A stretch of 48,199 nt of DNA from Bdellovibrionales bacterium (GCA_022842925.1 JALHOQ010000003.1:1-48199), one strand, 5' to 3'. Counted from the first letter of the stretch, positions 5,522-41,151 are shown. The notes: a model not told the origin generated them from the letters alone. Made by a program: numbers and translations.

Positions 5522-7609
5522 ATGAATCCATGGTTGAAAAATATATCCATTGCCCAGATCGCCAGCGGGCTGCTTGTGCCGATCGGCGCGGCCCAGGCAG
5601 GTCCTGCAAACCCGCCCACCCCTCCTCCCGAATGCGAAGCCGTCTTGGTCGCAAGCTGGCTCCCCAATCTTCCCCGGCTTACCGAGCCCGGGTTTTTGCG
5701 CCAGCGCCTGGCGACGTCGAAAGCGGACCTCAAAACAGCCGTACGAGAAATCCTCGAACTCGACAAAAACCAGCGAACCTTTACCAACACGGTTCTGCGC
5801 CTTGAAGACGCCCGCGCCCAGTACTTAGAAAAAATCATCTACTACCTCGCCGTCGCCTCCACGGTCGTTCCCGGGGATAGCCAACAGGAACTGCAAAAGA
5901 TTCAAGTCGAAGCATTCGATGCGCTCAATGAGTTGGCCTTAAACCACGAACTCTACCTGGCGACTCAAGACCAAAAGCCCGAGAATCCGGCCCAGCAAGC
6001 TTTGCTGAAAGAGTACAACGAGATGTTCCGCGAAAACGGCGCGACCCTGATTGAGGCCAGCCGCAGGAGGATTCAAAAGCTGCAAACGGAGATGTCCGAA
6101 TTGCAAGTGGCCTATCTGAACAATCTAAAAAAAGAAATTCTGATCTCCTTGCACAAAGATGAATTAACGGGAGTCGATCTCACCCCACTCAAACCAACCG
6201 CCGAGGGACTTTACCAGGTCGCTGCACAAAGTTCCGATTCCGTACGCCGACTGCTCACCACAGCCACTAGCGAAGAAACCCGTAAGAAGATCTTTCTCGC
6301 TTATCGCTCGCGCGCGCCTAAAAACAGTGCGATCCTGATCGACTACGTCAACAAGGCCGGAGAAATCGCCAGTCTCCTCGGCAAAGACAACACGCTCGAT
6401 TCGATGATCTCGCCTGAATCTTTGGCCCGTAACCGTCATGAGGTCGCACGGGTGATCAGTGAATTACGCACGCACATGCAACCAGGACTCACCGCCAAGC
6501 GTGAAGCCATGCAAGCCTTAAAAGCCGCCACTGGCTCGACTAAGCCCTTGGCCCCTTGGGACGTATTCTACTTTGAAGCCCAGCTGGAGAAGCAAGAAGC
6601 TGCTGCAAAAACAGACGAACTCGCCGGTATTGAAAAGCACTTTCCCGCCATCCCCACCATGGAGCGGACGCTCCATGTGTTTGCCCGTTTGCTTTCTCTT
6701 CAAGTCTTGGAACGAAAAGACCTAGTCGGATGGACTCCGGAGGTGCGAGCGTTTGAAGTTCGAAAGCTGGATGGAGCGCCTGTGGGTCTCTTGTACCTCG
6801 ATCCGCATTCACGACCAGAGAAAGATCCCAACACCGCGTTTGTGTCCAGGCTATCACCGCCGGTGGCGAATCGGCATGCGCCCGCGGTAGCGGTCGTGTT
6901 CAACATGGGGCCGAAGGAAGAAGCGGCCTCCAAATATCTCGAAATCTCGAAGGTCGGCACCCTGGTTCATGAATTCGGTCATGCTTTCCACGCACTTTTA
7001 GCCAAGGCCGACTACGTCTCGACCTGGGGCTACAATCGGACGACGGACTTTGTCGAAATTCCGTCTAATTTTGGCGAGCTGCTTTTAACGGATCCCAACA
7101 CTTTGACGGCGATTGCGGATGGCGGTCTCACCCGAGCACAGGCGGAGGCGGTGGCGCGTGAGCTATCCGGAACTCCGCGAGTCAGCCCGACCCATTTACA
7201 CAACACCTTCTTTTTGGCCTGGCTCGATCAGCTCTTGTTCGACCGAGCGACTGGCCCGTCGACGCTAACCCCGGCGCAGTTGCATCGCCTTTATCGACAG
7301 GCCCATTTCGATTTCTACGGCTTTGAGACTGATCCAGGTGATCGCTTTTTCGATTCGTTTTCACATTTGGTCGTTGGTTATGGCGGCAACTACTATTCCT
7401 ACTTCTGGTCTAAGATGGCGGCCATTCATATTTGGGATCGGATGTCGGCGTTGGGCGGCTTTCACTCACCTCAGGCCCGCGCCCAATATGTGAGCGAGGT
7501 GCTGGAGCCGACGACGGCCGTTCACGCTAAGCAGGCGCTCGAAAGCTTCTTAGGCACGCCGATGAGCCCCGTCCCCTACCTGCGCCGGTTGGGTTTGGCG
7601 TCGGAGTAA
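5522..7609 (+). CDS. exported M3-family zinc oligopeptidase (thimet/Dcp/oligopeptidase A-like)
   Basis: 695 aa. HExxH in the typical M3 context GTLVHEFGHAFHALLA. Length and C-terminal catalytic region are typical of M3. N-terminal signal peptide ...GLLVPIGAAQA followed by PPECEAVLV. Confidence 0.85.
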   Translation: MNPWLKNISIAQIASGLLVPIGAAQAGPANPPTPPPECEAVLVASWLPNLPRLTEPGFLRQRLATSKADLKTAVREILELDKNQRTFTNTVLRLEDARAQYLEKIIYYLAVASTVVPGDSQQELQKIQVEAFDALNELALNHELYLATQDQKPENPAQQALLKEYNEMFRENGATLIEASRRRIQKLQTEMSELQVAYLNNLKKEILISLHKDELTGVDLTPLKPTAEGLYQVAAQSSDSVRRLLTTATSEETRKKIFLAYRSRAPKNSAILIDYVNKAGEIASLLGKDNTLDSMISPESLARNRHEVARVISELRTHMQPGLTAKREAMQALKAATGSTKPLAPWDVFYFEAQLEKQEAAAKTDELAGIEKHFPAIPTMERTLHVFARLLSLQVLERKDLVGWTPEVRAFEVRKLDGAPVGLLYLDPHSRPEKDPNTAFVSRLSPPVANRHAPAVAVVFNMGPKEEAASKYLEISKVGTLVHEFGHAFHALLAKADYVSTWGYNRTTDFVEIPSNFGELLLTDPNTLTAIADGGLTRAQAEAVARELSGTPRVSPTHLHNTFFLAWLDQLLFDRATGPSTLTPAQLHRLYRQAHFDFYGFETDPGDRFFDSFSHLVVGYGGNYYSYFWSKMAAIHIWDRMSALGGFHSPQARAQYVSEVLEPTTAVHAKQALESFLGTPMSPVPYLRRLGLASE

Positions 7610-13192: not shown

Positions 13193-14059
13193 TTAAAGGC
13201 AAGATCTCCCTTGGCGGCACCTGGTTGAGTCCCCCTCTTCTTCCGCAAGGGCTTTTTCCACGGCGTGGAAGAGCTCCTCCGAGATCTCGATGCCTGAGCC
13301 ATTGGCGTTGAGAATTGATCCACGAATCAATATTCCAACGGCTCTCCATTCATCATTTGGAGCGACAGGTTCAATAAAGACGGGACCGCCGGAGTGTCCT
13401 TTTGCAGAATTAAAACCGACAACCATCGGGCCAAAGAAAAACTCTTCAATAGTTTTGAAGAGGCTCCCCTCGTAAATAGAAAATATCGTGCGTGACCCCT
13501 GGGTGCACGAGAATCCCCCAGTAATAAGGCGTGAAGAGTTTAAGGTAACCCTGTCTGTCCTAACCATTTTAATTGCTCCAGAGGGCAGTTTGTGTGGGGT
13601 CGAGAGTCGCAATATCGCCCAGTCCGAGAACTTCCTTCTTCCATAAGCAATAACCTTTGCGGATGTCCCACCCTGAAGGACCTGATCGATCGGATTCCGA
13701 TCCAATTGAGCCAGACCCGGAACAAATATAAATGCACTATCGGCAATCGGACGATAATTGGGAACCCAAAAGAAGTCCGAGACGAAATCAGTAGAAACGA
13801 CATTGTGCTGAGCGGTCACAAGGAGCCGATCACTGATCATGAAAGCCGTCCCCAGGTAGGCTCTGTTTGGCGTGACCGTAAACAGGGCCCCCACGGCGGA
13901 CCAAGGATACTCATCCATATCAATTCGTTGAGCACCTGAACACCCTTGGGGTGAGGCAAGACCCGGGCTCACGTAAGTACACGCCGCTATCACAAGAACA
14001 AGGTAGAAATGAAAACGAAGACTGACCATGAGCCGCAAATGCTTCAAGAACTGCGCCAT
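13193..14059 (-). CDS. exported trypsin-like serine protease (S1 family, V8/Glu-endopeptidase-like)
   Basis: Catalytic triad contexts are all present: LLVTAQHNV (His), DWAILRL (Asp) and KGHSGGPVF (Ser). Hydrophobic N-terminus. Confidence 0.8.
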   Translation of the reverse strand: MAQFLKHLRLMVSLRFHFYLVLVIAACTYVSPGLASPQGCSGAQRIDMDEYPWSAVGALFTVTPNRAYLGTAFMISDRLLVTAQHNVVSTDFVSDFFWVPNYRPIADSAFIFVPGLAQLDRNPIDQVLQGGTSAKVIAYGRRKFSDWAILRLSTPHKLPSGAIKMVRTDRVTLNSSRLITGGFSCTQGSRTIFSIYEGSLFKTIEEFFFGPMVVGFNSAKGHSGGPVFIEPVAPNDEWRAVGILIRGSILNANGSGIEISEELFHAVEKALAEEEGDSTRCRQGRSCL

Positions 14060-15387: not shown

Positions 15388-16047
15388 ATGAGTAAGATTT
15401 TTTTCATGGTTGTTATCTTGATGGGCAACGTAGCTTATGGAGCTATACGCTCGACCCAAGTTGAACGTCAAGACGAGGCTCGATTTGCGGTCCGACTGTT
15501 AGCGAATGGTGAGCCCGTTTGCTCCGGGTTTCAGATTGAAAAAGACATTGTATTAACGGCCGACCATTGCCTGAGCTCAATCAAAGTCAATCAGATCGAA
15601 GTTTACAATATCGACCAAGGCGAAGTCGAAACGGTAGCAATCGCAAGTCAGATCAGTGCGAATTACTTGGGATCCACAGCGGACATTGCTTTGCTGAAGC
15701 TCTCGTCGACCGTGAATTCCGCATACGAGAATCAGATGCCCCAACTTGCAGAAGGCCATTTATGTAACGGCAACCTGGTGAGTTTTGGTTTTGGAATAGA
15801 CGAGGGCCACTCTATGACCAAGAGTTCGATTGTTGCAGTCATAAGCCAAACATCCACCCCATTGCTCGTGGCTCCACTTGCAGTGGTGTTTTACCTAATG
15901 GGCAAACCCGGATGGGCGTGCGCTCTGAATACCTCCATACGCGCTGCGGACGTCAGTCAAAACAATAGGCTCCTTCGTCTGCTCATCCAGCATTTAAAAG
16001 GGGGAGTTACCCCGAGCAGCAGTCGAGGCGGCGCATTCTCGGGATAA
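15388..16047 (+). CDS. trypsin-like (S1) protease homologue, probably inactive or decayed
   Basis: Signal peptide MSKIFFMVVILMGNVAYG. His context VLTADHCL and Asp context DIALLKL are present. No GDSGG-type Ser motif is visible in this or adjacent frames, and the C-terminal 70 aa look non-homologous. Confidence 0.5.
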   Translation: MSKIFFMVVILMGNVAYGAIRSTQVERQDEARFAVRLLANGEPVCSGFQIEKDIVLTADHCLSSIKVNQIEVYNIDQGEVETVAIASQISANYLGSTADIALLKLSSTVNSAYENQMPQLAEGHLCNGNLVSFGFGIDEGHSMTKSSIVAVISQTSTPLLVAPLAVVFYLMGKPGWACALNTSIRAADVSQNNRLLRLLIQHLKGGVTPSSSRGGAFSG

Positions 16048-17642: not shown

Positions 17643-17904
17643 GGCATTCCTTCTATCTTCGCGCCTTCGCATGCGACGAAGATCGGCGCCTCAGAGCCGG
17701 GCTCCGTCACCGCAAAAAGATTGAAAACGCCTACAGCATAAATAAGCGCGAATATATGGACTTGAATCATTCTTGGGCCTAGAGCTGCAATCGAGCCGCC
17801 AACGCGTTGTGAGCCTCCGCCAGCTAGCAGCCCTTGAGCGCCTTTCACTCGAATCCACTTTAAGCGGTTTAGGCCCTGGACCTAAGCCTGCCTCTTTTAA
17901 AAGA

Positions 17905-17970
17905 GTTATATTGGACTATCTAAATATAACTTTTCTTGTGAAAAGTTATATTAGATGTGCTATCTATAAC
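17905..17970. promoter_or_regulatory. two 26-bp palindromic sites, candidate operators of fic
   Basis: GTTATATTGGACTATCTAAATATAAC (17905-17930) and GTTATATTAGATGTGCTATCTATAAC (17945-17970), 40 bp centre to centre. They end 3 nt before the fic ATG. Confidence 0.5.
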
Positions 17971-17973
17971 CTT

Positions 17974-19215
17974 ATGAAAAAGGCCGATCTTCATCCGAAA
18001 CTTCAGCTTGGCGCCGAAAAAGGCTCCGGCGATCTTCAGAACCTTTGGTTTGTTATCCCGCCACCGCCTTCACGAGAAAAAGTGGCAGGCGCAAAGTTAA
18101 ATTCTAAGTTGCTCAGGGAGGCTCACCAAGTTCTTGCTTCCCTACCTAGGTTCGATGATTTAAATGGCGTTGATCAGTTGATCTTGGCCTTGCTAGTTCG
18201 CCGAGAAGCGCTGCATTCCTCGCGCATCGAGGGCACAGCTTCCACTATCGAACAGGTACTGACTCCAAGGGAATTGTTTAGGAAGGGCGAAAAGTCCGCT
18301 CGAGCCTCAATTGTAGGATACGCACAGGCACTAGAAGATGCGCTAGTAGATGCACGCAAGAGAGGTCCGAAAATATTTACTAAAGATCTTCTAAGAAAAC
18401 TTCACAAAGATTTGATGTCTCGAGATCCAGAATTCAGAGGCAAACCGGGGCTCTTTCGAAATGAAATAGGTAAAGGAATTTACGTAACCGTGGGCGGCTT
18501 GAATCGGCCCGAAAATTCGACATTTAATCCCACACCTCCAAAACACATCCCCAGGACATTAGATGAGAATCTCGAATGGATGAGGGACGATTTGCTGATC
18601 GAGATGAGTCACGCGGGTATGGCGCCCGGCCTTATTGTACGAATGGCGCGCGGCCATGCTCACTTTGAGGCTATCCATCCCTTCTCGGATGGGAATGGTC
18701 GAGTTGGTCGAATTCTGATGGCCCTGCAAATGGTCTGCGAAGGTTTTACGCCGTTGTATTTGTCGGGTTACATCGAAGCTCACAAGCCCAAATATTATAA
18801 GGCTCTTCAAGCGTCGCAAATGAAGCTCAATGAAATTCCAATAATACACTTTATTGCACAGGCTGTTGTGAGTTCATTCGACGAAGCTCAGAAAACAAAA
18901 AAAGCGTTAGGAGCACTTCCGGCGACTTGGCAAGAACGGGGAGGTTTTCGTTCAGACTCAGCGGCCAAAGCTTCGCTGAGTCTTTTGCTCGATACTCCGA
19001 TTCTCACGGTAAAGAGGCTTCAAGGCATGGTGAAAGTCAGTCAACCGGCGGCCAAGAGGGCCATCGAACAACTTCAAGCCGCAAAGATTCTCCGCGAACG
19101 AACTGGCCTGGGGAGAAACAGAGTCTTTGCAGCGGAAGAAGTGATTGAGATTTTGGCCCGTCCCTTTGGAGAAGATATTCAAACCGCGTTAGAAAGAGCA
19201 GAATCGCTTTATTGA
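17974..19215 (+). CDS. Fic-family protein (AMPylase-type), class II arrangement with C-terminal wHTH-like tail
   Basis: Fic motif HPFSDGNGRVGR. N-terminal inhibitory-helix-like motif SSRIEG ([ST]xxxE[GN]). C-terminal VKRLQGMVKVSQPAAKRAIEQLQAAKIL. Trimmed to the ATG at 17974 because the upstream 67 codons cover the operator-like AT-rich region. Confidence 0.85.
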   Translation: MKKADLHPKLQLGAEKGSGDLQNLWFVIPPPPSREKVAGAKLNSKLLREAHQVLASLPRFDDLNGVDQLILALLVRREALHSSRIEGTASTIEQVLTPRELFRKGEKSARASIVGYAQALEDALVDARKRGPKIFTKDLLRKLHKDLMSRDPEFRGKPGLFRNEIGKGIYVTVGGLNRPENSTFNPTPPKHIPRTLDENLEWMRDDLLIEMSHAGMAPGLIVRMARGHAHFEAIHPFSDGNGRVGRILMALQMVCEGFTPLYLSGYIEAHKPKYYKALQASQMKLNEIPIIHFIAQAVVSSFDEAQKTKKALGALPATWQERGGFRSDSAAKASLSLLLDTPILTVKRLQGMVKVSQPAAKRAIEQLQAAKILRERTGLGRNRVFAAEEVIEILARPFGEDIQTALERAESLY

Positions 19216-21001: not shown

Positions 21002-21553
21002 TTAGCTTCCCGCCGCGCAGATGATTTCCACGGATTCAATTTGGGAAAGTGGATAAAACGTTTCTTTAGCTATGGCCTCAATTCGGCCGTCAGCCGAATT
21101 GTGATTCTGGATTAAGAAGTTCAGCACTCCCGCCTCCGAGCCAATTTGGCCGTTGCGAAAAGGGAGGGCAAAGTAGTTGCTGGTATCATTCACCAGTGCA
21201 ATTCTGTTATTGCCATTGTAGCGCGAGACTCCGAAGGGGAAATCGACTCCGATCTCAAAATACAGATTGGAATTTGACTCGGAACTCTTATTGAAGGGCA
21301 GACCATCCCCGATCGGTTGGCCGAAGTTATGACGAATTCGTGCGGAAAAACCGCCCGCGTGAGCTTCGTACACTCGACCACTTTCATTTTCGATAACCAG
21401 ATTAAAATTTCCTTGGTCAGGCGCTTTCATCTTATCTGAATGGAAGACCTGGAGCAGGCAGATTTCGAATTCAGTTCGAGGATCTCTCTGAGCCAAGCTT
21501 TGTGAGCACGTCAAAATCAGAATGGCCGTGGCCAGGATGGATGTCCAATTCAT
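21002..21553 (-). CDS. exported hypothetical protein (183 aa)
   Basis: ATG at 21553 preceded by GGAGGA. Signal peptide MNWTSILATAILILTCSQSLAQ. Confidence 0.65.
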   Translation of the reverse strand: MNWTSILATAILILTCSQSLAQRDPRTEFEICLLQVFHSDKMKAPDQGNFNLVIENESGRVYEAHAGGFSARIRHNFGQPIGDGLPFNKSSESNSNLYFEIGVDFPFGVSRYNGNNRIALVNDTSNYFALPFRNGQIGSEAGVLNFLIQNHNSADGRIEAIAKETFYPLSQIESVEIICAAGS

Positions 21554-21756
21554 TAATATTCCTCCGAATTGGTGCTCCGAATTGCAATTTAGGCTCCATC
21601 GTATAGGAGAACACGCAAGCTCCAACTGTTTACCCGAAACGAATATGGCGGCCTTTAGGCGCTATATTCGTCTCAGAGGGTGCCCATATTGGGCCGAAAA
21701 AGGTTGATTGGATCGGTTTCTCTGATACGTTCCTCCAAAATTTATGGGGGTAAACC

Positions 21757-22455
21757 TTGAAGTCGATTTTTCTAGTTGTATTGGCGTCTTTGGCCAGTTT
21801 CATTCCTGCGGCCTTTGCAGGTCCTAACGCGAAAGTCGGTAGTCCTCAGTTTCAGTTCGAAGACGCCCAAGCGGCCTTTGTTGGCGCCGAAGCGATGACA
21901 AGAAACAAATTGGTGCGTCGCTGGCAAATGGTGGGAATTGCCAACAGTCCCTCGGTTAAGGGTGATAGCGATGGCTACTTTGCCAATGGCCAGTATCGGG
22001 TCGATGGCCACCCGGGCTATTTCATGAATGTAATGGAGATCCACACGAAAAAAAATTCTGTGGATGTCGAAGTTGTTGAAAAGGTTCTAGGGGCAGAGTC
22101 AGGCAAGATTTACGGTTTAACGGGCCCGACGCCGGCTACTTTCACACCGACGGGGCTTGTTTTCGAGAATCCGGGAAGCAAAGAAATATGTCCCGCCCGA
22201 ACCGAGTGTCGACTATCCAGTTTTGGTCGAACAGCTCCGATGATGCTTTGTTCAATCACGAATACCGATGCCTCCTGTGGCACAGTGGGCGAGATTCATC
22301 GCTACGTGGGCTTTGTTAAGGCGACGTTGCCCACCAATGGGAACGGCGGGATTCGTGGCGATAGCGGCCTTGTCGAGCAATGCCGCCAGTACCCCTACCA
22401 GCCCTGGTGCCCCTGTCCTTACAATTACGGTTGCCGACGTCCCGATTTCCGCTAA
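21757..22455 (+). CDS. exported hypothetical protein (232 aa) with Cys/Pro-rich C-terminus
   Basis: TTG start. Signal peptide MKSIFLVVLASLASFIPAAFA. The tail is CRQYPYQPWCPCPYNYGCRRPDFR. Confidence 0.6.
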   Translation: MKSIFLVVLASLASFIPAAFAGPNAKVGSPQFQFEDAQAAFVGAEAMTRNKLVRRWQMVGIANSPSVKGDSDGYFANGQYRVDGHPGYFMNVMEIHTKKNSVDVEVVEKVLGAESGKIYGLTGPTPATFTPTGLVFENPGSKEICPARTECRLSSFGRTAPMMLCSITNTDASCGTVGEIHRYVGFVKATLPTNGNGGIRGDSGLVEQCRQYPYQPWCPCPYNYGCRRPDFR

Positions 22456-22731: not shown

Positions 22732-23133
22732 ATGCGATCAAAAGCCGCCATTTTAATTTTAATATTTTCGCTGACCGGCATCGCAAACGGAGCCGCCACA
22801 GACGCCAATAAAGAGCGGATGGCCTTAATGAATGTCGTTTTAAATTCTGAAGAACTGGTGAAATTGGTCGGTGAATACGGCCGCGATGGCTTTGTATTTG
22901 ACGGAATGAACTGGCTTAACACCTATGACAACTTCAGATATTACAATTTAACGTTTAAGAAATTTAATTTGCAGGGGAGCGAAAAGGAAGGTCAGAGGAT
23001 TTACACCTCGATCACGACGACCTGCCACCATCGCGTCACCTTGAAATCGGGATTAGTCGCGAGCATTGATCCCACCGGCTGCAGTGAAGAACGCCAGTCT
23101 ATTTCGGAAAAAGAACTGCTCGGAAAAAGGTAA
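22732..23133 (+). CDS. small exported protein (133 aa)
   Basis: Signal peptide MRSKAAILILIFSLTGIANG. The next gene follows after a 3-nt gap. Confidence 0.6.
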   Translation: MRSKAAILILIFSLTGIANGAATDANKERMALMNVVLNSEELVKLVGEYGRDGFVFDGMNWLNTYDNFRYYNLTFKKFNLQGSEKEGQRIYTSITTTCHHRVTLKSGLVASIDPTGCSEERQSISEKELLGKR

Positions 23134-23136
23134 ACC

Positions 23137-23514
23137 ATGTTGAATGCTGTTTTAGGTGCATTAATCTTGCTACAGGCAAGTCCAAGCTTTGCAACAGCTG
23201 AGACACCTCGCTCCGTATGTGATGCGTTGCAAGCTCAATTTTCGTTAGAAAAATTAGACTATTCCGAAGCTAACGAATCCTTTACCGACGGCTGTTCTAC
23301 TCAAACCATAAAATGCACGTTTCCAGTTCGCGGCGACTCTGATGCCGATCAAATCAAAGCATTCTTGGTCTCTGAGGACCGTTGGAAGCGCTGGGAGAAA
23401 TCTTGCTCTGCTTTGAACCTTGAGCCAAGATTCATGCGAGGTCACACCAGCTTTGTTGGCAGTGGGTTCCCGCTTTATATCTTGATGTGCCATAAGGAAT
23501 CCAACTGCAACTAG
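23137..23514 (+). CDS. small exported protein (125 aa)
   Basis: Signal peptide MLNAVLGALILLQASPSFA followed by TPRSVCDALQ. Confidence 0.6.
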   Translation: MLNAVLGALILLQASPSFATAETPRSVCDALQAQFSLEKLDYSEANESFTDGCSTQTIKCTFPVRGDSDADQIKAFLVSEDRWKRWEKSCSALNLEPRFMRGHTSFVGSGFPLYILMCHKESNCN

Positions 23515-23658
23515 TTCCATAAATCGGTTAGGCCGAAAAAAGGGCACCCCCACCTAAAACTTCTACAGGGGGAGACACAAAAGTGAGCCGCCTAATCGCT
23601 CAGGCTCGAGCCCGCGTCCTTTTCATTGGAATGCCGTTTGCCTTTGAGGAGAGCACTC

Positions 23659-25395
23659 ATGCGATTGATCCTTTTGCTCCTCTTTCTGCCGTTAGCCGCC
23701 ATGGCCAAATGGTCCAATAACGATTGCGAAGATCGCCTGCTTCCGGTGGCGGACGGCACGCGTGAACGCTTCGTCTTTGGATCCGCGACGTACCTCAATT
23801 TATCTCTGCTCAAAGAGTATGAATCGATTTCTCCTGAAGTTCGCCAGCGTTTCGATCAAGAGGTCCGAGCGGTTGAGCACCTCAGCCGTCGCCAAGCCCA
23901 TGAAATCGCGCTGGCCTACCATCAAAGTCCGGATGAACCCAACCGGCTCAAACTCTTTAACGCCATGAGGATTCTAGTTCCCATCGCCAGTCGCCATCTT
24001 CTGGCCAGATTAAATGGGCCCGACGATCTCGAAGACTATTTTCAGGTCGGCTACGCCGGACTTTGGCAAGCGTTACCGAACGTCCCTAAAATCGCCCCGC
24101 GCAAAATGAAGAGCCTTCTCTACTGGGAGGGCGTGGCCAATGGGCTGCGCAAGCAGATTTTTTATAATATGCGCCGGCAGTTTCGGACTCAGTACTCGCT
24201 GACGCCCGTCTCTTTTGCGAAGGGATCGGAGTTTTCGTTTGAGGAGGAAATTCTACTCTTTGGCTTTTCACCAGAGGAAAGGGCCAAAATCGCAGCCGAT
24301 TATGGCCGCAAGGCGGAGGAAGCCGAAGCCGAATGGCAGCTGCAAATGGCCTCGGTCCTCCACCACTTGCAAACCGACGAAGCCACGGAACCCGCTTCAG
24401 CTGAGGAGCAGATTGAAGAGGAGTATGTGCGATCGGAGCTCAAGCAGCTTGTTGATCGGAGTTTGTTAAAGCTACCTCCCCGAGTGGAGCGAATTCTCCG
24501 TATGTCAGTGATGGCTGAAATGACTTTAGAACAGGTCGGCAATAAGATTGGTGTGACGAAAGAGCGCATCCGGCAACAAGAGATGCAGGGCCTACGCGTC
24601 CTCATGCACCCCGCTTATTCGCGTAAGCTCAAAGAATACCAAGACGGTTTTTATGATATTGATGACCCAAAAGTTAAGTGGGATCGAATAGTTGTTCAGT
24701 CGCAACGCAAGCAAGCCGCCGCCGCGGCTAAGGCTTGGGAAGCCGAGAGAGCCAAAATTGAACGCCAGAAGGCAGAGCTGGCCCAAACTGACCTTCGGGA
24801 ACGGGAGTTAAAGGCCCGTGAAAAACTGACGCAAACTCTAAATGCGCACAAGCGAGAATTTGCGACAACAATGGCAAACCTTTATCGCCTGCTGGATCGC
24901 TACGGAACGGAGTACTCCGATCTTCAAGAATCTGCCAAAGGACTTGAGCGCAAGGTGACGGAGGCGAAAGCGGACTTCTTTGGTGCCGTGGACACGCTTC
25001 TGGCTAAGCCGATCGCATCCGCAACCAAGGAAGCCGAGCTCATCCAAGATCGCAATCGGCGGCAACCCCTGCTCCAAACCTTGTCGCAGCACCTCTCGCA
25101 ATTCATTCCGAAGATCCGAGATTTACAATCACGTATTGAAGAAACCGAAGAAGAAAAGGCGAAAAAAATTGAAATCACGGCGCGCGAAGTCTCGCATATT
25201 GCGCAGGCCTTAGAAGCCATGGTCCAACTTCAGGACAAAGGGAATTCAAGTCCCATTGTGGAATCCCAGCGGGCCGAACTGGCCCGGCAACTCAAGTTGA
25301 AGCGCGAGGAGCTGGATCGAATTCAGCTTCCATTCGACCATGAGATTCAGGCCACACTCAGCACATTGAGAATAATTATAAAACAAGGCCCGTAA
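23659..25395 (+). CDS. sigma-70-like protein with N-terminal signal/anchor sequence and ~230-aa C-terminal coiled-coil tail
   Basis: ATG at 23659 after GAGGAGAG. N-terminus MRLILLLLFLPLAAMA. Region-2-like LFNAMRILVPIASRHLLARLNGPDDLEDYFQVGYAGLWQAL...LLYWEGVANGLRKQIFYNMRRQ. Region-4 HTH LPPRVERILRMSVMAEMTLEQVGNKIGVTKERIRQQEMQGLRVL. The tail is rich in K/E/Q/A heptad-like sequence. Confidence 0.65.
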   Translation: MRLILLLLFLPLAAMAKWSNNDCEDRLLPVADGTRERFVFGSATYLNLSLLKEYESISPEVRQRFDQEVRAVEHLSRRQAHEIALAYHQSPDEPNRLKLFNAMRILVPIASRHLLARLNGPDDLEDYFQVGYAGLWQALPNVPKIAPRKMKSLLYWEGVANGLRKQIFYNMRRQFRTQYSLTPVSFAKGSEFSFEEEILLFGFSPEERAKIAADYGRKAEEAEAEWQLQMASVLHHLQTDEATEPASAEEQIEEEYVRSELKQLVDRSLLKLPPRVERILRMSVMAEMTLEQVGNKIGVTKERIRQQEMQGLRVLMHPAYSRKLKEYQDGFYDIDDPKVKWDRIVVQSQRKQAAAAAKAWEAERAKIERQKAELAQTDLRERELKAREKLTQTLNAHKREFATTMANLYRLLDRYGTEYSDLQESAKGLERKVTEAKADFFGAVDTLLAKPIASATKEAELIQDRNRRQPLLQTLSQHLSQFIPKIRDLQSRIEETEEEKAKKIEITAREVSHIAQALEAMVQLQDKGNSSPIVESQRAELARQLKLKREELDRIQLPFDHEIQATLSTLRIIIKQGP

Positions 25396-25506: not shown

Positions 25507-25917
25507 ATGTCGTCTTATTTAGTCTTACCCGCCATCGTCGTTGTCGCTTTAATCCTGGATTATATCTGGATCGCGAAGATCGCCAATGGCCTTTACCTGC
25601 AGGCTTTTCAAGGATTCGGGCGAATCGTCGACGGGCAGTTCGTTCCGATATTATGGGCGGCGGCGGTGGTGTATTTGATCATTCCGGCGGCCGTCTATGT
25701 CTTTGTGGTTTCGTCGAGTGGTGGGCAGAGCTATGGACTTACGCTTCTGAAAGGTGGGTTCCTCGGCTTTTGTCTTTATGGCGTTTACGATTTCACCAAT
25801 CTGGCCACGATTCAAAACTGGACGCTTCGTCTTTCGCTGATCGATGTAGCCTGGGGAATTTTCCTCTGTGCCGTCTTGTCGTTGTTCGGTAAATTTCTGC
25901 TTGAGCGCGCTTCGTGA
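25507..25917 (+). CDS. DUF2177-family membrane protein
   Basis: 136 aa with 4 TM segments. Family-typical LDYIWIAKIANGLY...GVYDFTNLATIQNWTLRLSLIDVAWG. Confidence 0.75.
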   Translation: MSSYLVLPAIVVVALILDYIWIAKIANGLYLQAFQGFGRIVDGQFVPILWAAAVVYLIIPAAVYVFVVSSSGGQSYGLTLLKGGFLGFCLYGVYDFTNLATIQNWTLRLSLIDVAWGIFLCAVLSLFGKFLLERAS

Positions 25918-26411
25918 ACTTGCAGGGTTCGCTGTTTAACTTTGTCTGGTTTCAAGCGGGTTGGTGGGCCACGGCGTTTTTGGTGGCGAGCGGTTATCCC
26001 TTTTGGGCGGCGGCTTTGTTGGCCGCGATGGCCGGCGTTCACCTTCTCATTCACCGCGATCGGGCCGGAGAGCTCACACGCCTGGCCAATGTGGCCTTCG
26101 CCGGCTACTCCATGGATTCACTTTTCGCTTATCAGGGCCTGCTACAGGTGACGCCGCCTTTCGCAATTGGACTGCCGCATTTTTGGCTGCTGGGATTGTG
26201 GCTTCTATTCGCGACGACCGTGAATCATTCTTTGGCTTGGATGTTCGCAAGGCCTTGGCTGGCCGCCGCTCTGGGAGCAGTATTTGGGCCGCTGACCTAT
26301 TGGTTGGCGGGCGAGGGCTTTGGGGTGGTTCGCTTTACGAGCGTCGATGGGCCTTTTTATTACGCTGCCGGATGGGCGCTCTTAATGTATTTTACGGCTA
26401 AGAGGTTTTGA
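25914..26411 (+). CDS. DUF2878-family membrane protein
   Basis: GTGA overlap with the upstream gene. N-terminus LFNFVWFQAGWWATAFLVASG is typical for the family. Multi-TM. Confidence 0.65.
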   Translation: MNLQGSLFNFVWFQAGWWATAFLVASGYPFWAAALLAAMAGVHLLIHRDRAGELTRLANVAFAGYSMDSLFAYQGLLQVTPPFAIGLPHFWLLGLWLLFATTVNHSLAWMFARPWLAAALGAVFGPLTYWLAGEGFGVVRFTSVDGPFYYAAGWALLMYFTAKRF

Positions 26412-26412
26412 T

Positions 26413-27192
26413 ATGAATCTAAAAGGACAGGTCGTTTTGTTGACGGGAGCCAGCCGGGGAATCGGTTTGGCTTTGGCCCAGTCACTGGCCGGACGAGGGG
26501 CGAAGTTGCACTTGGTTTCACGCCGGTTTGCGCCGGAAATGAAAGCGGATCTCGAGCAGCGCGGCGCCGAGAGCGTGCGCCTATGGGAAAAAGATTTGTC
26601 GATCATGAGTCAAGCCGATGAGTTGGCCCGCGCACTTGAAGGCGAGTCGATCGATGTTTTAATCAATAATGCGGGCTTGCTGACTGGCGGATTGCTCGAG
26701 GAGCAGGACCCCGATGCAATCGATCAGATGTTGATGGTCAATGTTCACGCGGTGATTCGCTTAACCCGAAAGCTCTTACCCCACATGCTCGCCCGCCGGT
26801 CCGGCAAAATCGTGAACAACGCCAGTGTCTCGGGAAAAATGTTTTTTCCCTGCGCCAGCACATATGCCGCATCCAAAGCCGCGGTGGTGGCCTTTACCGA
26901 GTCCTTAAAGCAAGAATTGCGCGGCACCGGCGTGTCGACTTTGCTTTTAATCACGCCCGGCGTGAAGACAGCCATGTACGATGAAATCCAGGATCTCTAC
27001 GGCGGTCATTTGGATCTCTCATTTATGAATTCGATTCCGGCCGAAGAATGGGCCGAACGAGTCGTCCGCGCCATCGAAGACGATGAAGACACCCTCTGGC
27101 CGACCGGCTCGAGCCACTTGGGCGTCAAATTCGCTCACCACCTACCCGCTTTATTCGAGAGGGTTGTGCGGCCGAAGTTTAAGCGCTCGTAG
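26413..27192 (+). CDS. short-chain dehydrogenase/reductase (SDR)
   Basis: TGASRGIGLALA (TGxxxGxG), NNAG and the YAASKAAV (YxxxK) motif. Starts 1 nt after the upstream stop. Confidence 0.9.
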   Translation: MNLKGQVVLLTGASRGIGLALAQSLAGRGAKLHLVSRRFAPEMKADLEQRGAESVRLWEKDLSIMSQADELARALEGESIDVLINNAGLLTGGLLEEQDPDAIDQMLMVNVHAVIRLTRKLLPHMLARRSGKIVNNASVSGKMFFPCASTYAASKAAVVAFTESLKQELRGTGVSTLLLITPGVKTAMYDEIQDLYGGHLDLSFMNSIPAEEWAERVVRAIEDDEDTLWPTGSSHLGVKFAHHLPALFERVVRPKFKRS

Positions 27193-27716: not shown

Positions 27717-28070
27717 TCACTGAGCGCTGAGCGAAACCTGAGCGCCTGAGGGCAGAATCAAGACCATGTTCTCCACGATCTGACAGTCGCCAGAGAGCAC
27801 TGCGCGCATCACTTCCCCGCCCAGATTCACCGATAAAATCGTCTCACCGATATCTGGATCCGAATTCCGGCTCACCATAGACAGTGTCCCGCTCTGGCCA
27901 TTGAGCTTAAACGGCACAACCCTACCTGGGCCAATGCCACCTGTGGCTTCGAAAACTAGCTGACGCCCGGTGAGCGGGTTGGTTCCGATCAACGGTCCAT
28001 TGAAGGCGATGCCGCCAGCAAAGGCCTGGATCGAGAAAACTGCGAGTAGCACGAGAATCGTTTGAGTCAT
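27717..28070 (-). CDS. small exported protein (117 aa), paralogue of 35431-35784
   Basis: Signal peptide MTQTILVLLAVFSIQAFA. About 80 percent aa identity with 35431-35784. Identical GGGAGGAGGTATTTATG translation initiation region. Confidence 0.7.
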   Translation of the reverse strand: MTQTILVLLAVFSIQAFAGGIAFNGPLIGTNPLTGRQLVFEATGGIGPGRVVPFKLNGQSGTLSMVSRNSDPDIGETILSVNLGGEVMRAVLSGDCQIVENMVLILPSGAQVSLSAQ

Positions 28071-35430: not shown

Positions 35431-35784
35431 CTACTGAGCGTTCAGCGAAATCTGGGCACCTGAAGGCAGGATCAGAACCATATTCTTTACGACCTGACAG
35501 TCGCCTGAGAGCACGGCGCGCATGGTTTCACCCCCCAAGGTCACTGACAAAATGGTCTCGCCAATATCGGAATCCGTGTTTCGGCTCACCATAGTGAGTG
35601 TTCCTGCCTGACCGTTGAGCTGAAATGGCACGACCATATCCGGGCCAATTCCGCCTGTGGCTTCAAAGACCAACTGCCGTCCTGTAAGCGGGTTTATGCC
35701 AATCAAAGGTTTATTAAAGCCAATCCCCCCGGCAAACGCATGGAACGAAAAAACTGAGAGCAGTACAAGAATCATATTAGTCAT
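35431..35784 (-). CDS. small exported protein (117 aa), paralogue of 27717-28070
   Basis: Signal peptide MTNMILVLLSVFSFHAFA. Same length and about 80 percent identity to 27717-28070. Confidence 0.7.
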   Translation of the reverse strand: MTNMILVLLSVFSFHAFAGGIGFNKPLIGINPLTGRQLVFEATGGIGPDMVVPFQLNGQAGTLTMVSRNTDSDIGETILSVTLGGETMRAVLSGDCQVVKNMVLILPSGAQISLNAQ

Positions 35785-38388: not shown

Positions 38389-41151
38389 TCACGGCTGCAT
38401 ATTTAGAAAGCCATCGAGAATCACCATTTGCGGTGACTTCGGTTTTAGATAGCGCGCTTCCTTCTCAAACTCCTCCGACTCGAAAAAACCTTCATCGAAG
38501 GCCATGTTGAGTCGGCGAATCAGATCCTTAGAAACGGCCTCTTGTGGTTTCAGACCGGGATCTCGAGCCGAAAGCAATCGGTATCGGTGGAACCAACGGT
38601 CATAGTCCTTATAGGTCTTCAGATGATCGCCCTCGGAGCCGACGATCTTCAAAGCGCCCTTCTTAAGATGATCTACAAGTAACTTTTGGGCATCCTTAGA
38701 CAGGAAGTACAAAAGCTGCGTCAGATTGAGCAACCCCACTTCCGCCAGTGCGCTGCGAACAATTTTATCCGGATCCTCTCCAGCAGTGCGAAGCCGATCG
38801 TCCAAAGCGACCGCCAAACCCCTATAGTCCCGTCCATCATAAGACTTGTTCTGATTTGCCAGCTCGGTGGCCCATGCCCTCGCCGGCTCCTCCAACAATT
38901 CAAGAAAGTGCTGTTGGTGACCGTAGACATCGTGAATGGCAGATAGCCTCAATCCGCTTTGCAAGCGTGACACCATCTCTCTGTAATAAAACGAGGACTT
39001 TATAAAGTAGCTCGGCCACTTCCATAAGTGATGAAAATGGACGAGTTCCCTACTCAGAAACTCTACATTAATAAAGAGCTGATTGAGACGGAGAGCATTT
39101 ACCCTGTAATCACTCGCTCCTGTCGACTGCAATACAGACTTTAACACCGTTCGCAGAAGCTCCTCCTTAGCCTGCCGGGAAAGTTTTTCGTAGAAATCCT
39201 CTCCATTGCGTCCCCACCAGTTCTGCACGAGTCGACGTAGGGAACCCTCCGGTCCCTTCACAGCGCGCGGAAAACGCTTCGAAGTGGCAACAAATTCTTC
39301 ATACTGGCGGATGACGTTCTCCTCTGAGAATCCGTCCGATGAAGTGCGAAACTTGAGTAGCTCGGCCACAATGTCGTCGAGACCCGAGCCCCTCAGGCCT
39401 TCGCCATACAAATCGAGATCCGACTTCTGACGAGCTTGTTGCGTAACAAGGGAGGACCCTTGGAGGGCTTGAAATACCTGCAGCGCCTCTCGAACGGTCG
39501 ACTCATCGATTTTCATGGCCGTGAGCACGGAGACAACCGTCTTATCGTTTGTCAGGCGCAAAATCCGGCCGAGGCGCTGTAAAAACTGCCGAGGCCCCAC
39601 GTAACGGTTGAGGTCAATGTAAAGACTCAACCCCGGAACATCGATCCCCTCATCGAGTTGCTTCACTGTCACCAGATGATTGATTTTGCCGCTGCGCAAG
39701 TCTTGGCGAATCGAGATCTGTTCTTTAGGCGGCAAGCCTGAATGGAGTACGGCGAAGCGGAAATTTGCATCTTCGTTGCGGCTTGAAAGCGTTCGAAACA
39801 GAGCTTCCGCCTCCGCTTGAGTGGAAACCGAAGTAAAGCCAAACTTATGTTGTTTGGCATGTCGCATGACTTTTGCCGCCACAACGTCCATCTTTTCAGG
39901 CGCCAAAATATAGCGATCAAAATCCAGTCCCAAGGATCGAGTGCTTACAAACAGATCGTCAAACCCTCGGTTCAGAGTCAGTAATTGAATAAAGCCAATC
40001 GGGGATAGATCCCCTTGGGCCAAGGCTTGGTTAAGTTGATCCACAATGATCTGAAAAGAATAATCGACTGTCCGGCCTGGCTTACTAAAACTAGCCGCCG
40101 TGTCGACATAGGCCCAGAAGACGTTATCTTCAAAAAGATTCACAATAGATGTCTGCCGGTGAATCGGTGTGGCCGAGGTACCGTAAACGAAGCGGTCCTC
40201 GCCGCGGCTGTGAATTAGCCCGCTGACGATCTGCTTGGCATAATGAGCGCCCGCATGATGAACCTCGTCATAGCCGAAATATCCCACTCGTAGAAAAAAA
40301 TCATTTTGCTGATCGGGAGATAAAGAGAAAAAGGCATCACGAAGGCTCTGAATAGTAGTGACGACCAATATCGGCAAACCTTTGGGGCCATTTTTTTTGG
40401 CATCGTCCAACGCCTTTTGCAGTTCTGCTGGCTTCCCGTCGCCCCATATTCGCAAATCTACTGAAAGCCCCTTAATGCTTTGAATCTCCTGGACCAGTTG
40501 GGTCACGAGAAAATTGGAGTCGGCGACCACAAAATGGACTTTTTGTTTTGTAATCTGCAAAAATCGATCAAGTGAGACTTTCAAGATCTCGGTTTTGCCG
40601 GTACCCGTTGGCGACACGAACAAGAACGACCTCCGTCGCTCCTCCAACGACCATACTATCGATTTGACTGCCTCCTTTTGCGCCGGCCTGAGGACTTTCT
40701 TGCCAGTTACTTTGGCCTGCGGATGGGCGGCGTGACCGACCAACAATCGCTTGATCAATCCCTTTCTTTGCTCGGGCTTGAGTTCCCTCCACTTAAACCC
40801 TGTCGGGATTGAGAGTAGGCGCTCTCCTTCATATTGAATCTCAGGCTCCGTTAAATCGGGTCGACTCGACCACGCAACCCGAATTGAGGGTTGATCGGGA
40901 ATTAAAATCTCGATCTGCCCAGGAGCCAGTTCACGCCACTTGAATTCGGACTTAATCACGGGTTTTACAACATTCAGAAGAAAGTAACGTAACTGTGAGG
41001 CCGAGACTGGCGACGCCGGGCTAACCACCAACGCGTCGACACAGGATTGTGAGTTGTGGGCAAAACAGTTTGCACCAGACAGCAACATGAGGGCTGAACA
41101 AAACCGTCTAAAGTATCTCCAAAAGGAGACCATTCCGAGAATATTTTGCAC
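38389..41151 (-). CDS. SF2 DEVH-box helicase (ResIII + Helicase_C type) with N-terminal Sec-type signal peptide
   Basis: 920 aa. Motif I VSPTGTGKTE, II YDEVHH, III GTSATP, V QLDEGIDVPG, VI QRLGRILR. GTG start after AGGAAG. N-terminus FWRYFRRFCSALMLLSGANCFA followed by HNSQSCVDALV. Confidence 0.8.
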   Translation of the reverse strand: MQNILGMVSFWRYFRRFCSALMLLSGANCFAHNSQSCVDALVVSPASPVSASQLRYFLLNVVKPVIKSEFKWRELAPGQIEILIPDQPSIRVAWSSRPDLTEPEIQYEGERLLSIPTGFKWRELKPEQRKGLIKRLLVGHAAHPQAKVTGKKVLRPAQKEAVKSIVWSLEERRRSFLFVSPTGTGKTEILKVSLDRFLQITKQKVHFVVADSNFLVTQLVQEIQSIKGLSVDLRIWGDGKPAELQKALDDAKKNGPKGLPILVVTTIQSLRDAFFSLSPDQQNDFFLRVGYFGYDEVHHAGAHYAKQIVSGLIHSRGEDRFVYGTSATPIHRQTSIVNLFEDNVFWAYVDTAASFSKPGRTVDYSFQIIVDQLNQALAQGDLSPIGFIQLLTLNRGFDDLFVSTRSLGLDFDRYILAPEKMDVVAAKVMRHAKQHKFGFTSVSTQAEAEALFRTLSSRNEDANFRFAVLHSGLPPKEQISIRQDLRSGKINHLVTVKQLDEGIDVPGLSLYIDLNRYVGPRQFLQRLGRILRLTNDKTVVSVLTAMKIDESTVREALQVFQALQGSSLVTQQARQKSDLDLYGEGLRGSGLDDIVAELLKFRTSSDGFSEENVIRQYEEFVATSKRFPRAVKGPEGSLRRLVQNWWGRNGEDFYEKLSRQAKEELLRTVLKSVLQSTGASDYRVNALRLNQLFINVEFLSRELVHFHHLWKWPSYFIKSSFYYREMVSRLQSGLRLSAIHDVYGHQQHFLELLEEPARAWATELANQNKSYDGRDYRGLAVALDDRLRTAGEDPDKIVRSALAEVGLLNLTQLLYFLSKDAQKLLVDHLKKGALKIVGSEGDHLKTYKDYDRWFHRYRLLSARDPGLKPQEAVSKDLIRRLNMAFDEGFFESEEFEKEARYLKPKSPQMVILDGFLNMQP

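Follow-up and report, generated by a model that had tools for sequence, protein, structure and literature searches.

Sigma factors are, by the textbook, strictly cytoplasmic proteins. One gene in a 48,199-nucleotide stretch of DNA from a Bdellovibrionales bacterium (GCA_022842925.1 JALHOQ010000003.1:1-48199, analyzed in full and referred to below as the window) raises the question of whether a member of the sigma-70 family can carry a secretion signal and, if so, whose RNA polymerase it would meet. The gene lies at 23659-25395 on the plus strand and encodes a sigma-70-like protein (the window protein) with a hydrophobic leader at its N-terminus and a long helical tail at its C-terminus. This protein is a variant of the sigma-70 family that is very rare and has not been described before. 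The reading that we favor, to which we assign a probability of roughly 0.35 for the whole chain of steps, is that of a Sec-exported sigma mimic that would bind an RNA polymerase core other than the producer's; the export step taken by itself appears reasonably probable from the features of the sequence.

Direct translation gave an uninterrupted protein with the N-terminus MRLILLLLFLPLAAMAKWSNNDCEDRLL and the internal sequence MTLEQVGNKIGVTKERIRQQEMQGLRVL, and the coordinates and the length of 578 residues assigned in a first-pass annotation of this DNA proved exact.

23659-25395 (+): coding sequence of the leader-bearing sigma-70-like protein, complete, 578 residues plus stop, with a start that agrees with the gene calls on other contigs

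The sigma signatures pointed out in that annotation are real, and significant matches were obtained by several routes. Pfam Sigma70_r4 (PF04545) matched residues 269-315 with 35.8 bits against a cut-off of 24.1 (E = 5.8e-9), and Sigma70_r2 (PF04542) taken alone stayed below its threshold (15.9 bits, cut-off 24). The NCBIfam model TIGR02937, which bears the name 'sigma70-ECF' (extracytoplasmic function) but is a superfamily-level model, passed with 57.3 bits versus 42.9 over residues 118-315. The best matches among solved structures in the PDB were sigma4 chains of RpoD/SigA (E = 4.7e-11), and they included the C-terminal motif, which reads HPSRSRKL in those structures and HPAYSRKLKEY in the window protein. 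An alignment with RpoD-type sigma factors (alignment A3) was collinear through regions 1.2, 2.1-2.4, 3.0/3.1 and 4.1/4.2; A110, G131, L135 and W156 were invariant in 16 of 16 sequences, and the recognition helix of region 4.2 reads VTKERIRQ, compared with VTRERIRQ in the aligned RpoD sequences. The AlphaFold2 model contained sigma2 (residues ~50-180), sigma3 (~190-240) and sigma4 (~255-325) domains with predicted local distance difference test (pLDDT) values of about 78-96, and a Foldseek search with this model matched SigA, sigmaS, sigma32 and SigB over 270-350 columns with E values down to 7e-7. The sigma body comprises the following segments.

23791-23844 (+): conserved helix specific to the family, residues 45-62 (NLxLL[KR]xxExIxPEV), preceding region 1.2, with residues 45-55 modeled as a helix
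23845-24198 (+): region 1.2-like segment and sigma2 (regions 2.1-2.4), residues 63-180, from collinearity in A3, pLDDT of 83-96, TIGR02937 and the weak Sigma70_r2 match
24235-24378 (+): sigma3-like domain, residues 193-240 (FxFEExxLLFGxSPE...IAxxYG), aligned with RpoD region 3.0/3.1 in A3 and spanned by the Foldseek alignments
24427-24648 (+): sigma4 (regions 4.1-4.2) with the RpoD-type HPAYSRKLKEY motif, residues 257-330, from Pfam, PDB and A3

The helix at residues 45-62 has no RpoD counterpart in A3; within the family, its E55, I57 and V61 are invariant and its pairwise identity is 0.44. The sigma3-like helices (residues 194-240) were modeled with pLDDT values of 83-93.

Comparison with the curated subgroups (RpoD, RpoS, RpoH, FliA, SigB/F/G, ECF, SigE/K and MzaA) set the protein apart from all of them. 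Its scores against the NCBIfam equivalog models were far below the cut-offs (52.8 versus 555 bits for RpoD, 25.8 versus 323.1 for RpoH and 18.7 versus 189.6 for FliA/WhiG). With respect to the group 1 primary sigma factors (RpoD/SigA), the equivalog match covered the C-terminal part only, region 1.1 is missing, and most of the aromatic residues of region 2.3 have been lost; with respect to group 4 (ECF), which lacks sigma3, a sigma3-like domain is present at residues 193-240. In region 2.3, which carries a five-residue insertion relative to RpoD, the sigma70 residues F419, Y421, Y425, F427 and Y430 are replaced in A3 by V, K, R, M and L, with only the W433 position retained. We had counted four of these five aromatic positions as non-aromatic in the window protein; as aligned, all five residues are non-aromatic. 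By alignment and by model, the window protein is a complete three-domain (group 1-3 type) member of the sigma-70 family, divergent and outside every curated subgroup.

Is the hydrophobic leader part of this protein? The elements that bear on the answer are these.

23646-23651 (+): Shine-Dalgarno (SD) sequence GAGGAG, read from the sequence, 7 nucleotides 5' of the leader-opening ATG at 23659
23659-23706 (+): residues 1-16, predicted Sec signal peptide for signal peptidase I (SPase I), with n-region MR, h-region LILLLLFLPLA, c-region AMA and predicted cut A16|K17

A scan of the candidate starts identified the ATG at 23659 as the sole start with a full and properly spaced SD sequence. The TTG at codon 3 re-uses the same motif, and the scan found no SD motif upstream of the in-frame Met15 (ATG 23701); mechanically, the open reading frame (ORF) can be extended 5' to a TTG at 23626. 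The identical protein is encoded on five public (Logan) contigs, and their recorded gene calls share the start used in the window. All four of the loci scanned for start codons show the leader-including start behind an SD sequence or a purine-rich, SD-like motif (weak in locus L005), and in P0166 a GGAG is located 6 nucleotides before an internal TTG, a start that yields MLSSVKLILIVLFLQAPHLSTVYA|KVRSC. Loci L004 and L006 offer no further in-frame start until 46-51 codons downstream, by which point the invariant cysteine described below has been passed. A start at Met15 or another downstream codon was rejected because of the missing SD sequence, the leaders kept by relatives and the lack of an alternative start in L004 and L006. 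The leader is inside the ORF and very probably translated. The first-pass annotation had allowed that the hydrophobic stretch might lie upstream of the real start codon; the GAGGAG sequence and the homologous leaders place it downstream.

The leader is the hydropathy peak of the whole protein and includes an uncharged run of 14 residues. We applied a signal-peptide rule that combines a basic n-region, a hydrophobic window and a -3/-1 site, as in classical descriptions. Six of the seven distinct family members passed, versus 2 of 158 control sigma-region-4 proteins (1.3%) from the same HMMER search. Leaders equivalent to that of the window protein are found in P0008, P0009, P0010, P0012 and P0166, and the family leaders (all except P0011 as called) have one K or R, an uncharged hydrophobic core of 12-16 residues (longer in P0166, at about 18), usually a Pro, and a small-x-small site; the candidate cleavage sites are AMA|K, LHA|A, AGA|A, SHA|S and VYA|K, with acidic residues next. 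This physicochemical pattern is retained across 25-40% identity while the sequence drifts. By the rule, the positively charged n-region, the h-region of 7-15 residues and the polar c-region with small residues at -3 and -1 of a Sec/SPase I signal peptide are all present, and the charge bias, positive before the core and acidic after it, predicts that the C-terminal part is translocated (N-in/C-out). Judged from these comparisons, the leader is a conserved feature of the family and not an annotation artifact. As to its nature, the first-pass annotation had offered a membrane-tethered sigma factor or a secreted mimic; the short core, the single basic residue, the helix breaker, the small-x-small site and the acidic start of the mature protein lean towards a cleavable Sec signal peptide.

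These observations bear directly on the plainest explanation, namely that the protein is an ordinary cytoplasmic alternative sigma factor with a vestigial or inefficient N-terminus or a mis-called start, a tail that is a lineage-specific decoration, and nothing exported. The prior for a cytoplasmic sigma factor is overwhelming, an in-frame Met15 exists, P0011 as called is leaderless, and the case for export is drawn from sequence only. Nevertheless, we consider this explanation highly improbable: the SD sequence is positioned for the leader-including start with none for Met15, L004 and L006 offer no alternative start before the invariant cysteine, a downstream start would delete this lone cysteine in several members, and the leader pattern persists at 25-40% identity when only 1.3% of the control proteins show it.

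Other classes of N-terminal signal were also considered. A lipoprotein signal (SPase II) was rejected since the lipobox [LVI][ASTVI][GAS]C is absent, the cysteine being 4-10 residues beyond the hydrophobic core and preceded in the family by NND, EGN, ADS, GLL, ESH, VRS or TMS. A twin-arginine translocation (Tat) signal was rejected because each leader has a single K or R, with no RR and no S/T-R-R-x-F-L-K motif. A type IV prepilin leader was rejected for lack of the motif, and a transmembrane (TM) anchor was rejected because most members have too short a core and the charge bias runs in the wrong direction.

The leader is followed by a segment whose most constant element is a single cysteine.

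23707-23790 (+): post-leader segment, residues 17-44, low-confidence or disordered, containing the cysteine
23725-23727 (+): codon of Cys23, an invariant column in the family alignment A1 and the only cysteine in the window protein

Cys23 would become position 7 of the mature protein if the precursor were cut at A16|K17, and it is one of ten invariant columns in A1. It is the sole cysteine in P0001, P0009, P0010, P0011 and P0166 (544-653 residues), and the family cysteine is located 4-8 residues past the predicted cleavage site. The pLDDT was below 50 for residues 11-42, and the pairwise identity of the post-leader segment in the family is 0.21. The first-pass annotation had described NDCEDRLL as a module; as a repeated module it does not hold up, as it occurs once in the window, and the conserved element is its cysteine. 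In exported proteins, a conserved cysteine without a partner typically takes part in an intermolecular disulfide.

The same leader and cysteine feature in the main rival explanation, in which the hydrophobic N-terminal segment would retain the protein, in an inactive state, on the inner membrane of the producer (as a prosequence bound peripherally, or as an anchor that stays uncleaved and leaves the sigma domains cytoplasmic) until a protease or a redox event at the cysteine frees the sigma factor for the producer's own genes; the tail would then be auto-inhibitory or a sensor. The sigma domains are all intact, region 4.2 retains the residues that read the -35 element, the conserved beta-prime interface is equally expected of a normal sigma factor, and regulatory C-terminal extensions are known in ECF groups. 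There is also a precedent for a sigma-factor prosequence that is processed at the membrane, as the intramembrane protease SpoIVFB has Pro-sigmaK among its native substrates (PMC11486902). Pro-sigmaE and Pro-sigmaK resemble the window protein in being sigma-70 proteins with an N-terminal, partly hydrophobic extension that is outside the sigma fold and engages the membrane machinery. The prosequences of these Bacillota proteins differ in having no n/h/c organization, no AXA site and no invariant cysteine, and they are cut in the cytoplasm or membrane by SpoIIGA or SpoIVFB, neither of which has a gene close to the family members in the loci examined. We regard a tethered pro-sigma factor as unlikely. 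Most members have cores of 12-16 residues, short for spanning a bilayer, and that of P0166 has about 18; the charge distribution predicts an orientation that would put the sigma domains outside the cytoplasm, and the leaders end in canonical small-x-small SPase sites with a helix breaker. Beside the family members, no SpoIIGA, SpoIVFB, site-2-type (S2P-type) protease or anti-sigma gene is conserved; the best 25 of 34 NCBIfam matches include no SigE or SigK equivalog or other SigE/SigK model; and the absence of the tail from P0012 indicates that it is not an obligatory regulatory module.

How widespread is this architecture, and which of its surfaces is conserved? An exhaustive HMMER search over 1.84 billion representative proteins revealed about seven relatives with 25-40% identity: P0008 (521 residues, 40% identity), P0009 (653 residues), P0010 (630 residues), P0011 (631 residues), P0012 (349 residues) and P0114/P0166 (544 residues). 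All are singleton clusters except for one, which consists of the near-identical P0114 and P0166. The architecture was thus found in about eight sequences among roughly 15 billion proteins. Word-indexed homology searches returned RpoD sigma4 matches only and missed the family, which was seen only by the exhaustive HMMER search; a metagenome scan yielded just ordinary 239-residue FliA genes of high-GC organisms, and a genome scan with a three-sequence alignment found one locus. In the full-text literature searched, we found no precedent for a secreted, membrane-tethered or signal-peptide-bearing sigma factor, nor for predator proteins that act on prey transcription. The first-pass view that the architecture is atypical is strongly supported by this rarity and lack of precedent. 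P0009 is the only relative in a taxonomically named genome, a metagenome-assembled genome (MAG) of Bdellovibrionia, and the contig of P0010 carries one gene that is 85% identical to a gene in the same MAG.

Pairwise identity within the family varied by region. After the helix at residues 45-62 (0.44), the highest values were those of regions 2.1 (0.42) and 2.2 (0.41); region 4.2 was at 0.29 and region 4.1 at 0.20, and the loop of region 2.3 (residues 140-155), at 0.11, is the lowest in the whole protein. Q129, G131, L135, A110 and R112 are invariant. It is through the surface of regions 2.1-2.2 that every sigma factor contacts the beta-prime clamp helices, and the region 2.3 loop grips the melted -10 strand. 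Since regions 2.1-2.2 are top-conserved and region 2.3 least conserved, we infer that binding to core polymerase is the selected property, with promoter melting and recognition apparently lineage-specific or dispensable.

The same numbers also figure in an explanation that has nothing to do with RNA polymerase. The protein might be exported, on exactly the evidence given above, with its sigma2 and sigma4 helical modules put to a new use outside the cytoplasm, and serve as a binder of prey-derived or extracellular DNA or as a periplasmic or surface scaffold for another coiled-coil partner, with the tail as a spacer or oligomerization rod. The low identities of the region 2.3 loop (0.11) and region 4.1 (0.20) suggest that promoter melting and flap binding are not selected, and the tail resembles BAR domains and the HlyD coiled coil at non-significant scores. 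This explanation is rather improbable in our view, as the best-conserved surface is the binder of the beta-prime clamp helices, with its five invariant residues, the full order from region 1.2 to region 4 is retained together with the RpoD-like C-terminal motif, and the gene context suggests no alternative partner.

Residues 331-578 make up the tail, 248 residues that are predicted to be all-helical, in two parts.

24649-24846 (+): proximal tail, residues 331-396, a linker with a semi-conserved P-x-x-(Y/K)-W-D motif followed by a charged K/E/R/Q/A helix
24847-25392 (+): distal tail, residues 397-578, amphipathic heptad-patterned long helices in a predicted antiparallel hairpin or bundle

The first-pass annotation had called the tail a coiled coil and had quoted its K/E/Q/A-rich part in support. 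For that part, residues 337-396, the heptad pattern was at chance level (z = 0.3 versus shuffled controls); of residues 345-392, 42% carry a charge and 15% are strongly hydrophobic, and the proximal charged helix was modeled as a single long helix with pLDDT values of 81-89. The description fits only the distal two-thirds, where heptad periodicity exceeded chance over residues 398-448 (z = 4.6), 459-527 (z = 3.5) and 532-556 (z = 2.6). When the tail alone was modeled by AlphaFold2, three helices of ~113, 72 and 45 residues were obtained (pLDDT 75, predicted template modeling score 0.54), and this model suggests an intramolecular antiparallel bundle. A fold search of the PDB with the tail alone gave no significant match (best E = 0.13); the nearest shapes, all non-significant, were BAR domains, the HlyD coiled coil, IpaB-N and AhlC, that is, generic elongated bundles, and no Pfam family matched the tail. 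Most relatives have tails of 190-330 residues with a sequence identity of just 0.18. P0009 and P0010 align along their full length, and P0009, P0010 and P0011 share a P(R/K)xYWD motif after region 4. P0012 (349 residues) ends at a genuine stop right behind region 4. Given the tailless P0012 and the low tail identity, the tail is an optional accessory, and the family is defined by the leader (absent only in P0011 as called) and the cysteine.

The surroundings of the gene are rich in predicted secreted proteins. Of 42 ORFs in the window, 19 passed the signal-peptide rule and several more looked signal-peptide-like by eye; most are orphans with no family match. Directly upstream of the sigma-like gene are four small orphan ORFs, at 21002-21625 (-), 21757-22455 (+), 22732-23133 (+) and 23137-23514 (+), all with signal-peptide-like N-termini (two by the rule, two by eye); none had a Pfam match, and all but 21002-21625 were also without NCBIfam or PHROG matches. 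The window further encodes trypsin-like proteases at 13193-14059 (-) and 15388-16047 (+) and an M3 oligopeptidase at 5522-7609 (+), which, with the subtilisin-like protease described below, make the contig rich in proteases. This content fits a predator-like secretome. P0008 is likewise embedded among signal-peptide-bearing orphans, and orphans that look signal-peptide-like by eye also adjoin P0009 and P0010. No neighbor gene is common to the window and the loci of P0008, P0009 and P0010, and no anti-sigma, processing protease or transport gene is conserved beside the sigma-like gene in these four loci.

For the reading that we favor, we infer export, cleavage, disulfide formation, delivery and target as steps of one chain. 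The very hydrophobic leader of the precursor would drive translocation across the inner membrane, probably co-translationally by a signal recognition particle (SRP)-type route, by which a fast-folding helical protein could be exported. SPase I would cut after Ala16, leaving the lone cysteine about seven residues from the new N-terminus, where in the oxidizing periplasm it may form an intermolecular disulfide that yields a homodimer or a link to a carrier. The protein would then exit the cell alongside the unusually large secretome encoded around its gene. Its conserved sigma2 surface would bind the RNA polymerase core of a cell other than the producer, making the protein a competitor or mimic of sigma; the elongated tail, being optional, may serve delivery, oligomerization or membrane interaction and not transcription. 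Because the only placed family member is from Bdellovibrionia, the target would be the RNA polymerase of the prey. In its most specific form, in which a predator secretes through Sec a sigma mimic, held by a reducible disulfide at its lone N-terminal cysteine, that enters the prey cytoplasm with the aid of its tail, occupies the sigma site of the prey core and shuts down or redirects transcription, the proposal describes a new inter-bacterial effector, and in that form we find it doubtful. It would be a bacterial counterpart of the phages' use of their own sigma and anti-sigma factors. In Bdellovibrio bacteriovorus, a native Sec signal peptide of 20 residues suffices for extracellular release of a reporter, and the organism has Sec, Tat, type I and type II systems and a share of secreted proteins that is among the largest known (PMC12622784). 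The published sigma factor inventory of strain HD100 contains nothing comparable to the window protein (PMC3464611).

Several points weigh against this proposal. The call of a signal peptide was made by classical rules rather than by a dedicated predictor, P0011 as called has no leader, and bacteria offer no precedent for exporting a sigma-like protein, which makes the prior low. We know of no route from the predator periplasm to the prey cytoplasm, and none into the prey cytoplasm is encoded near the gene. Placement in Bdellovibrionia comes from P0009 alone, with P0010 tied to it through only one 85%-identical neighboring gene, and a predatory lifestyle of the carriers is a presumption. Group 3 and group 4 alternative sigma factors lack the sigma70 aromatic cluster and are nonetheless functional, so a degenerate region 2.3 is no proof that promoter melting has been lost. 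Finally, the near-primary recognition helix of region 4.2 would suit a genuine promoter-recognizing sigma factor as well as a mimic.

Known systems resemble the window protein only in part. With the group 1-3 sigma factors (RpoD/SigA, RpoS, RpoH, SigB/F/G and FliA), it shares domain order, the region 4.2 helix, the HPxxSRKL motif, regions 2.1-2.2 and the top structural matches. It differs from them in its Sec-type leader, invariant cysteine and additional helix before region 1.2, in lacking region 1.1 and, like its family, in the five-residue insertion, the loss of most of the aromatic residues that bind the -10 element and the helical tail of 190-330 residues. Nuclear-encoded plastid sigma factors (such as Arabidopsis SIG1-6) are made in one compartment with an N-terminal targeting peptide and transported across membranes to the polymerase of a different one (PMC2988416); among sigma-70 proteins, they are the only well-known case of this kind. 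Those proteins are eukaryotic, are imported through TOC/TIC or the endoplasmic reticulum (ER) plus plastid import by means of transit peptides, and serve a co-evolved organelle polymerase; in contrast, the window is bacterial, with densely packed genes, SD sites and a placed relative from Bdellovibrionia. ECF sigma factors with C-terminal extensions (for example the ECF41, ECF42 and ECF56 types) likewise have an extra C-terminal domain and no adjacent anti-sigma gene, but they lack sigma3 and an N-terminal signal peptide, and their extensions are SnoaL-like, TPR-like or zinc-finger/TM. MzaA of the MZA anti-phage system and phage sigma factors (phrog_351) are similar in being large sigma-region-4 proteins with extra domains. 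MzaA was matched by NCBIfam NF041931 (3.3e-14, with 52.7 bits versus a cut-off of 800) and by PADLOC (1.3e-7, residues 260-327 only), and both matches were confined to sigma4; the match to PHROG 351 (1.1e-8) covered sigma4 and the adjacent charged helix. No MZA partner genes or phage genes were found around the locus. Identity with MzaA was rejected because the match is limited to region 4 and far under the cut-off, with no partner genes.

The HMMER search also returned proteins outside the family. P0015, P0019, P0027 and P0047 have 300-350 residues, with N-terminal regions unrelated to sigma2 and with a charged helical stretch after sigma4, most evident in P0015 and P0027, into which the query alignments extend past region 4; they may represent a separate class of sigma4-only regulators and may be borne by phages. 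P0125 (406 residues), a sigma-region-4 protein and one of the control hits, starts with the signal-peptide-like MKSPNLSVILLLLTAASF|SIA, which by its sequence looks like an ER signal peptide plus an 'ASAF' motif, as in nuclear-encoded plastid proteins of complex-plastid algae; it would then be a further sigma factor with a signal peptide, but one whose reason is known.

At the locus itself, the GC content of the gene (0.525) is close to that of the window (0.518), so nothing suggests recent import, and horizontal acquisition was rejected on that basis. A prophage or defense-island origin was also rejected, as the neighbors have no PHROG matches and the MzaA match is limited to region 4. No tRNA genes or Rfam matches overlap the region. 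Downstream, 25507-27192 (+) holds three abutting or overlapping genes, for DUF2177 and DUF2878 membrane proteins and a short-chain dehydrogenase, which apparently form one operon; these genes are not conserved beside the relatives. In the interval 4769-8172 of L005, the locus of the closest relative, an orphan of 611 residues has the signal-peptide-like N-terminus MRPFFLHTFTVSLLTFSALAQASD... and ends 3 nucleotides before P0008, which suggests that P0008 is co-transcribed with a secreted partner; the window contains no homologue of this orphan. Two orphan paralogues of 117 residues, at 27717-28070 (-) and 35431-35784 (-), have near-identical signal-peptide-like N-termini (MTQTILVLLAVFSIQAFAGGIAFNGPLIGTNPLTG and MTNMILVLLSVFSFHAFAGGIGFNKPLIGINPLTG), a similarity that points to a small family of secreted paralogues on the contig. 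A subtilisin-like serine protease at 45400-47217 (-), with mycosin/PrtP-type matches and a signal-peptide-like N-terminus, carries at its C-terminus a TIGR02266 'gmx' paralogue domain, a fusion that is unusual among proteases. The 480-residue Fic/DOC protein at 17773-19215 (+) matched PADLOC SoFic over nearly its full length (E = 4.3e-66) as well as Pfam Fic and Fic_N. A helicase-like protein of 920 residues at 38389-41151 (-) gave partial matches to PADLOC PbeA (E = 1.6e-24), type IV methyl-directed restriction enzymes and a Dnd-associated restriction domain, and its gene is possibly a defense gene.

Overall, the interpretation proposed in the first-pass annotation is partly supported. A conserved family of sigma-70 proteins with a bona fide secretion signal would break the rule that sigma factors stay in the cytoplasm. 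If the protein proves to be a membrane-tethered pro-sigma factor, prosequence-controlled activation would extend beyond the endospore formers to a Gram-negative lineage, with a lone cysteine and a Sec-like leader as its chemistry. If it is instead exported and binds a foreign RNA polymerase, the protein would count as the first secreted sigma mimic and as a new way for one bacterium to seize or silence the transcription of another, and it could offer a template for broad-spectrum inhibitors of RNA polymerase. It would then also bear on predation of the Bdellovibrio type, both on how the physiology of the prey is shut off and on how predator proteins enter the prey cytoplasm.

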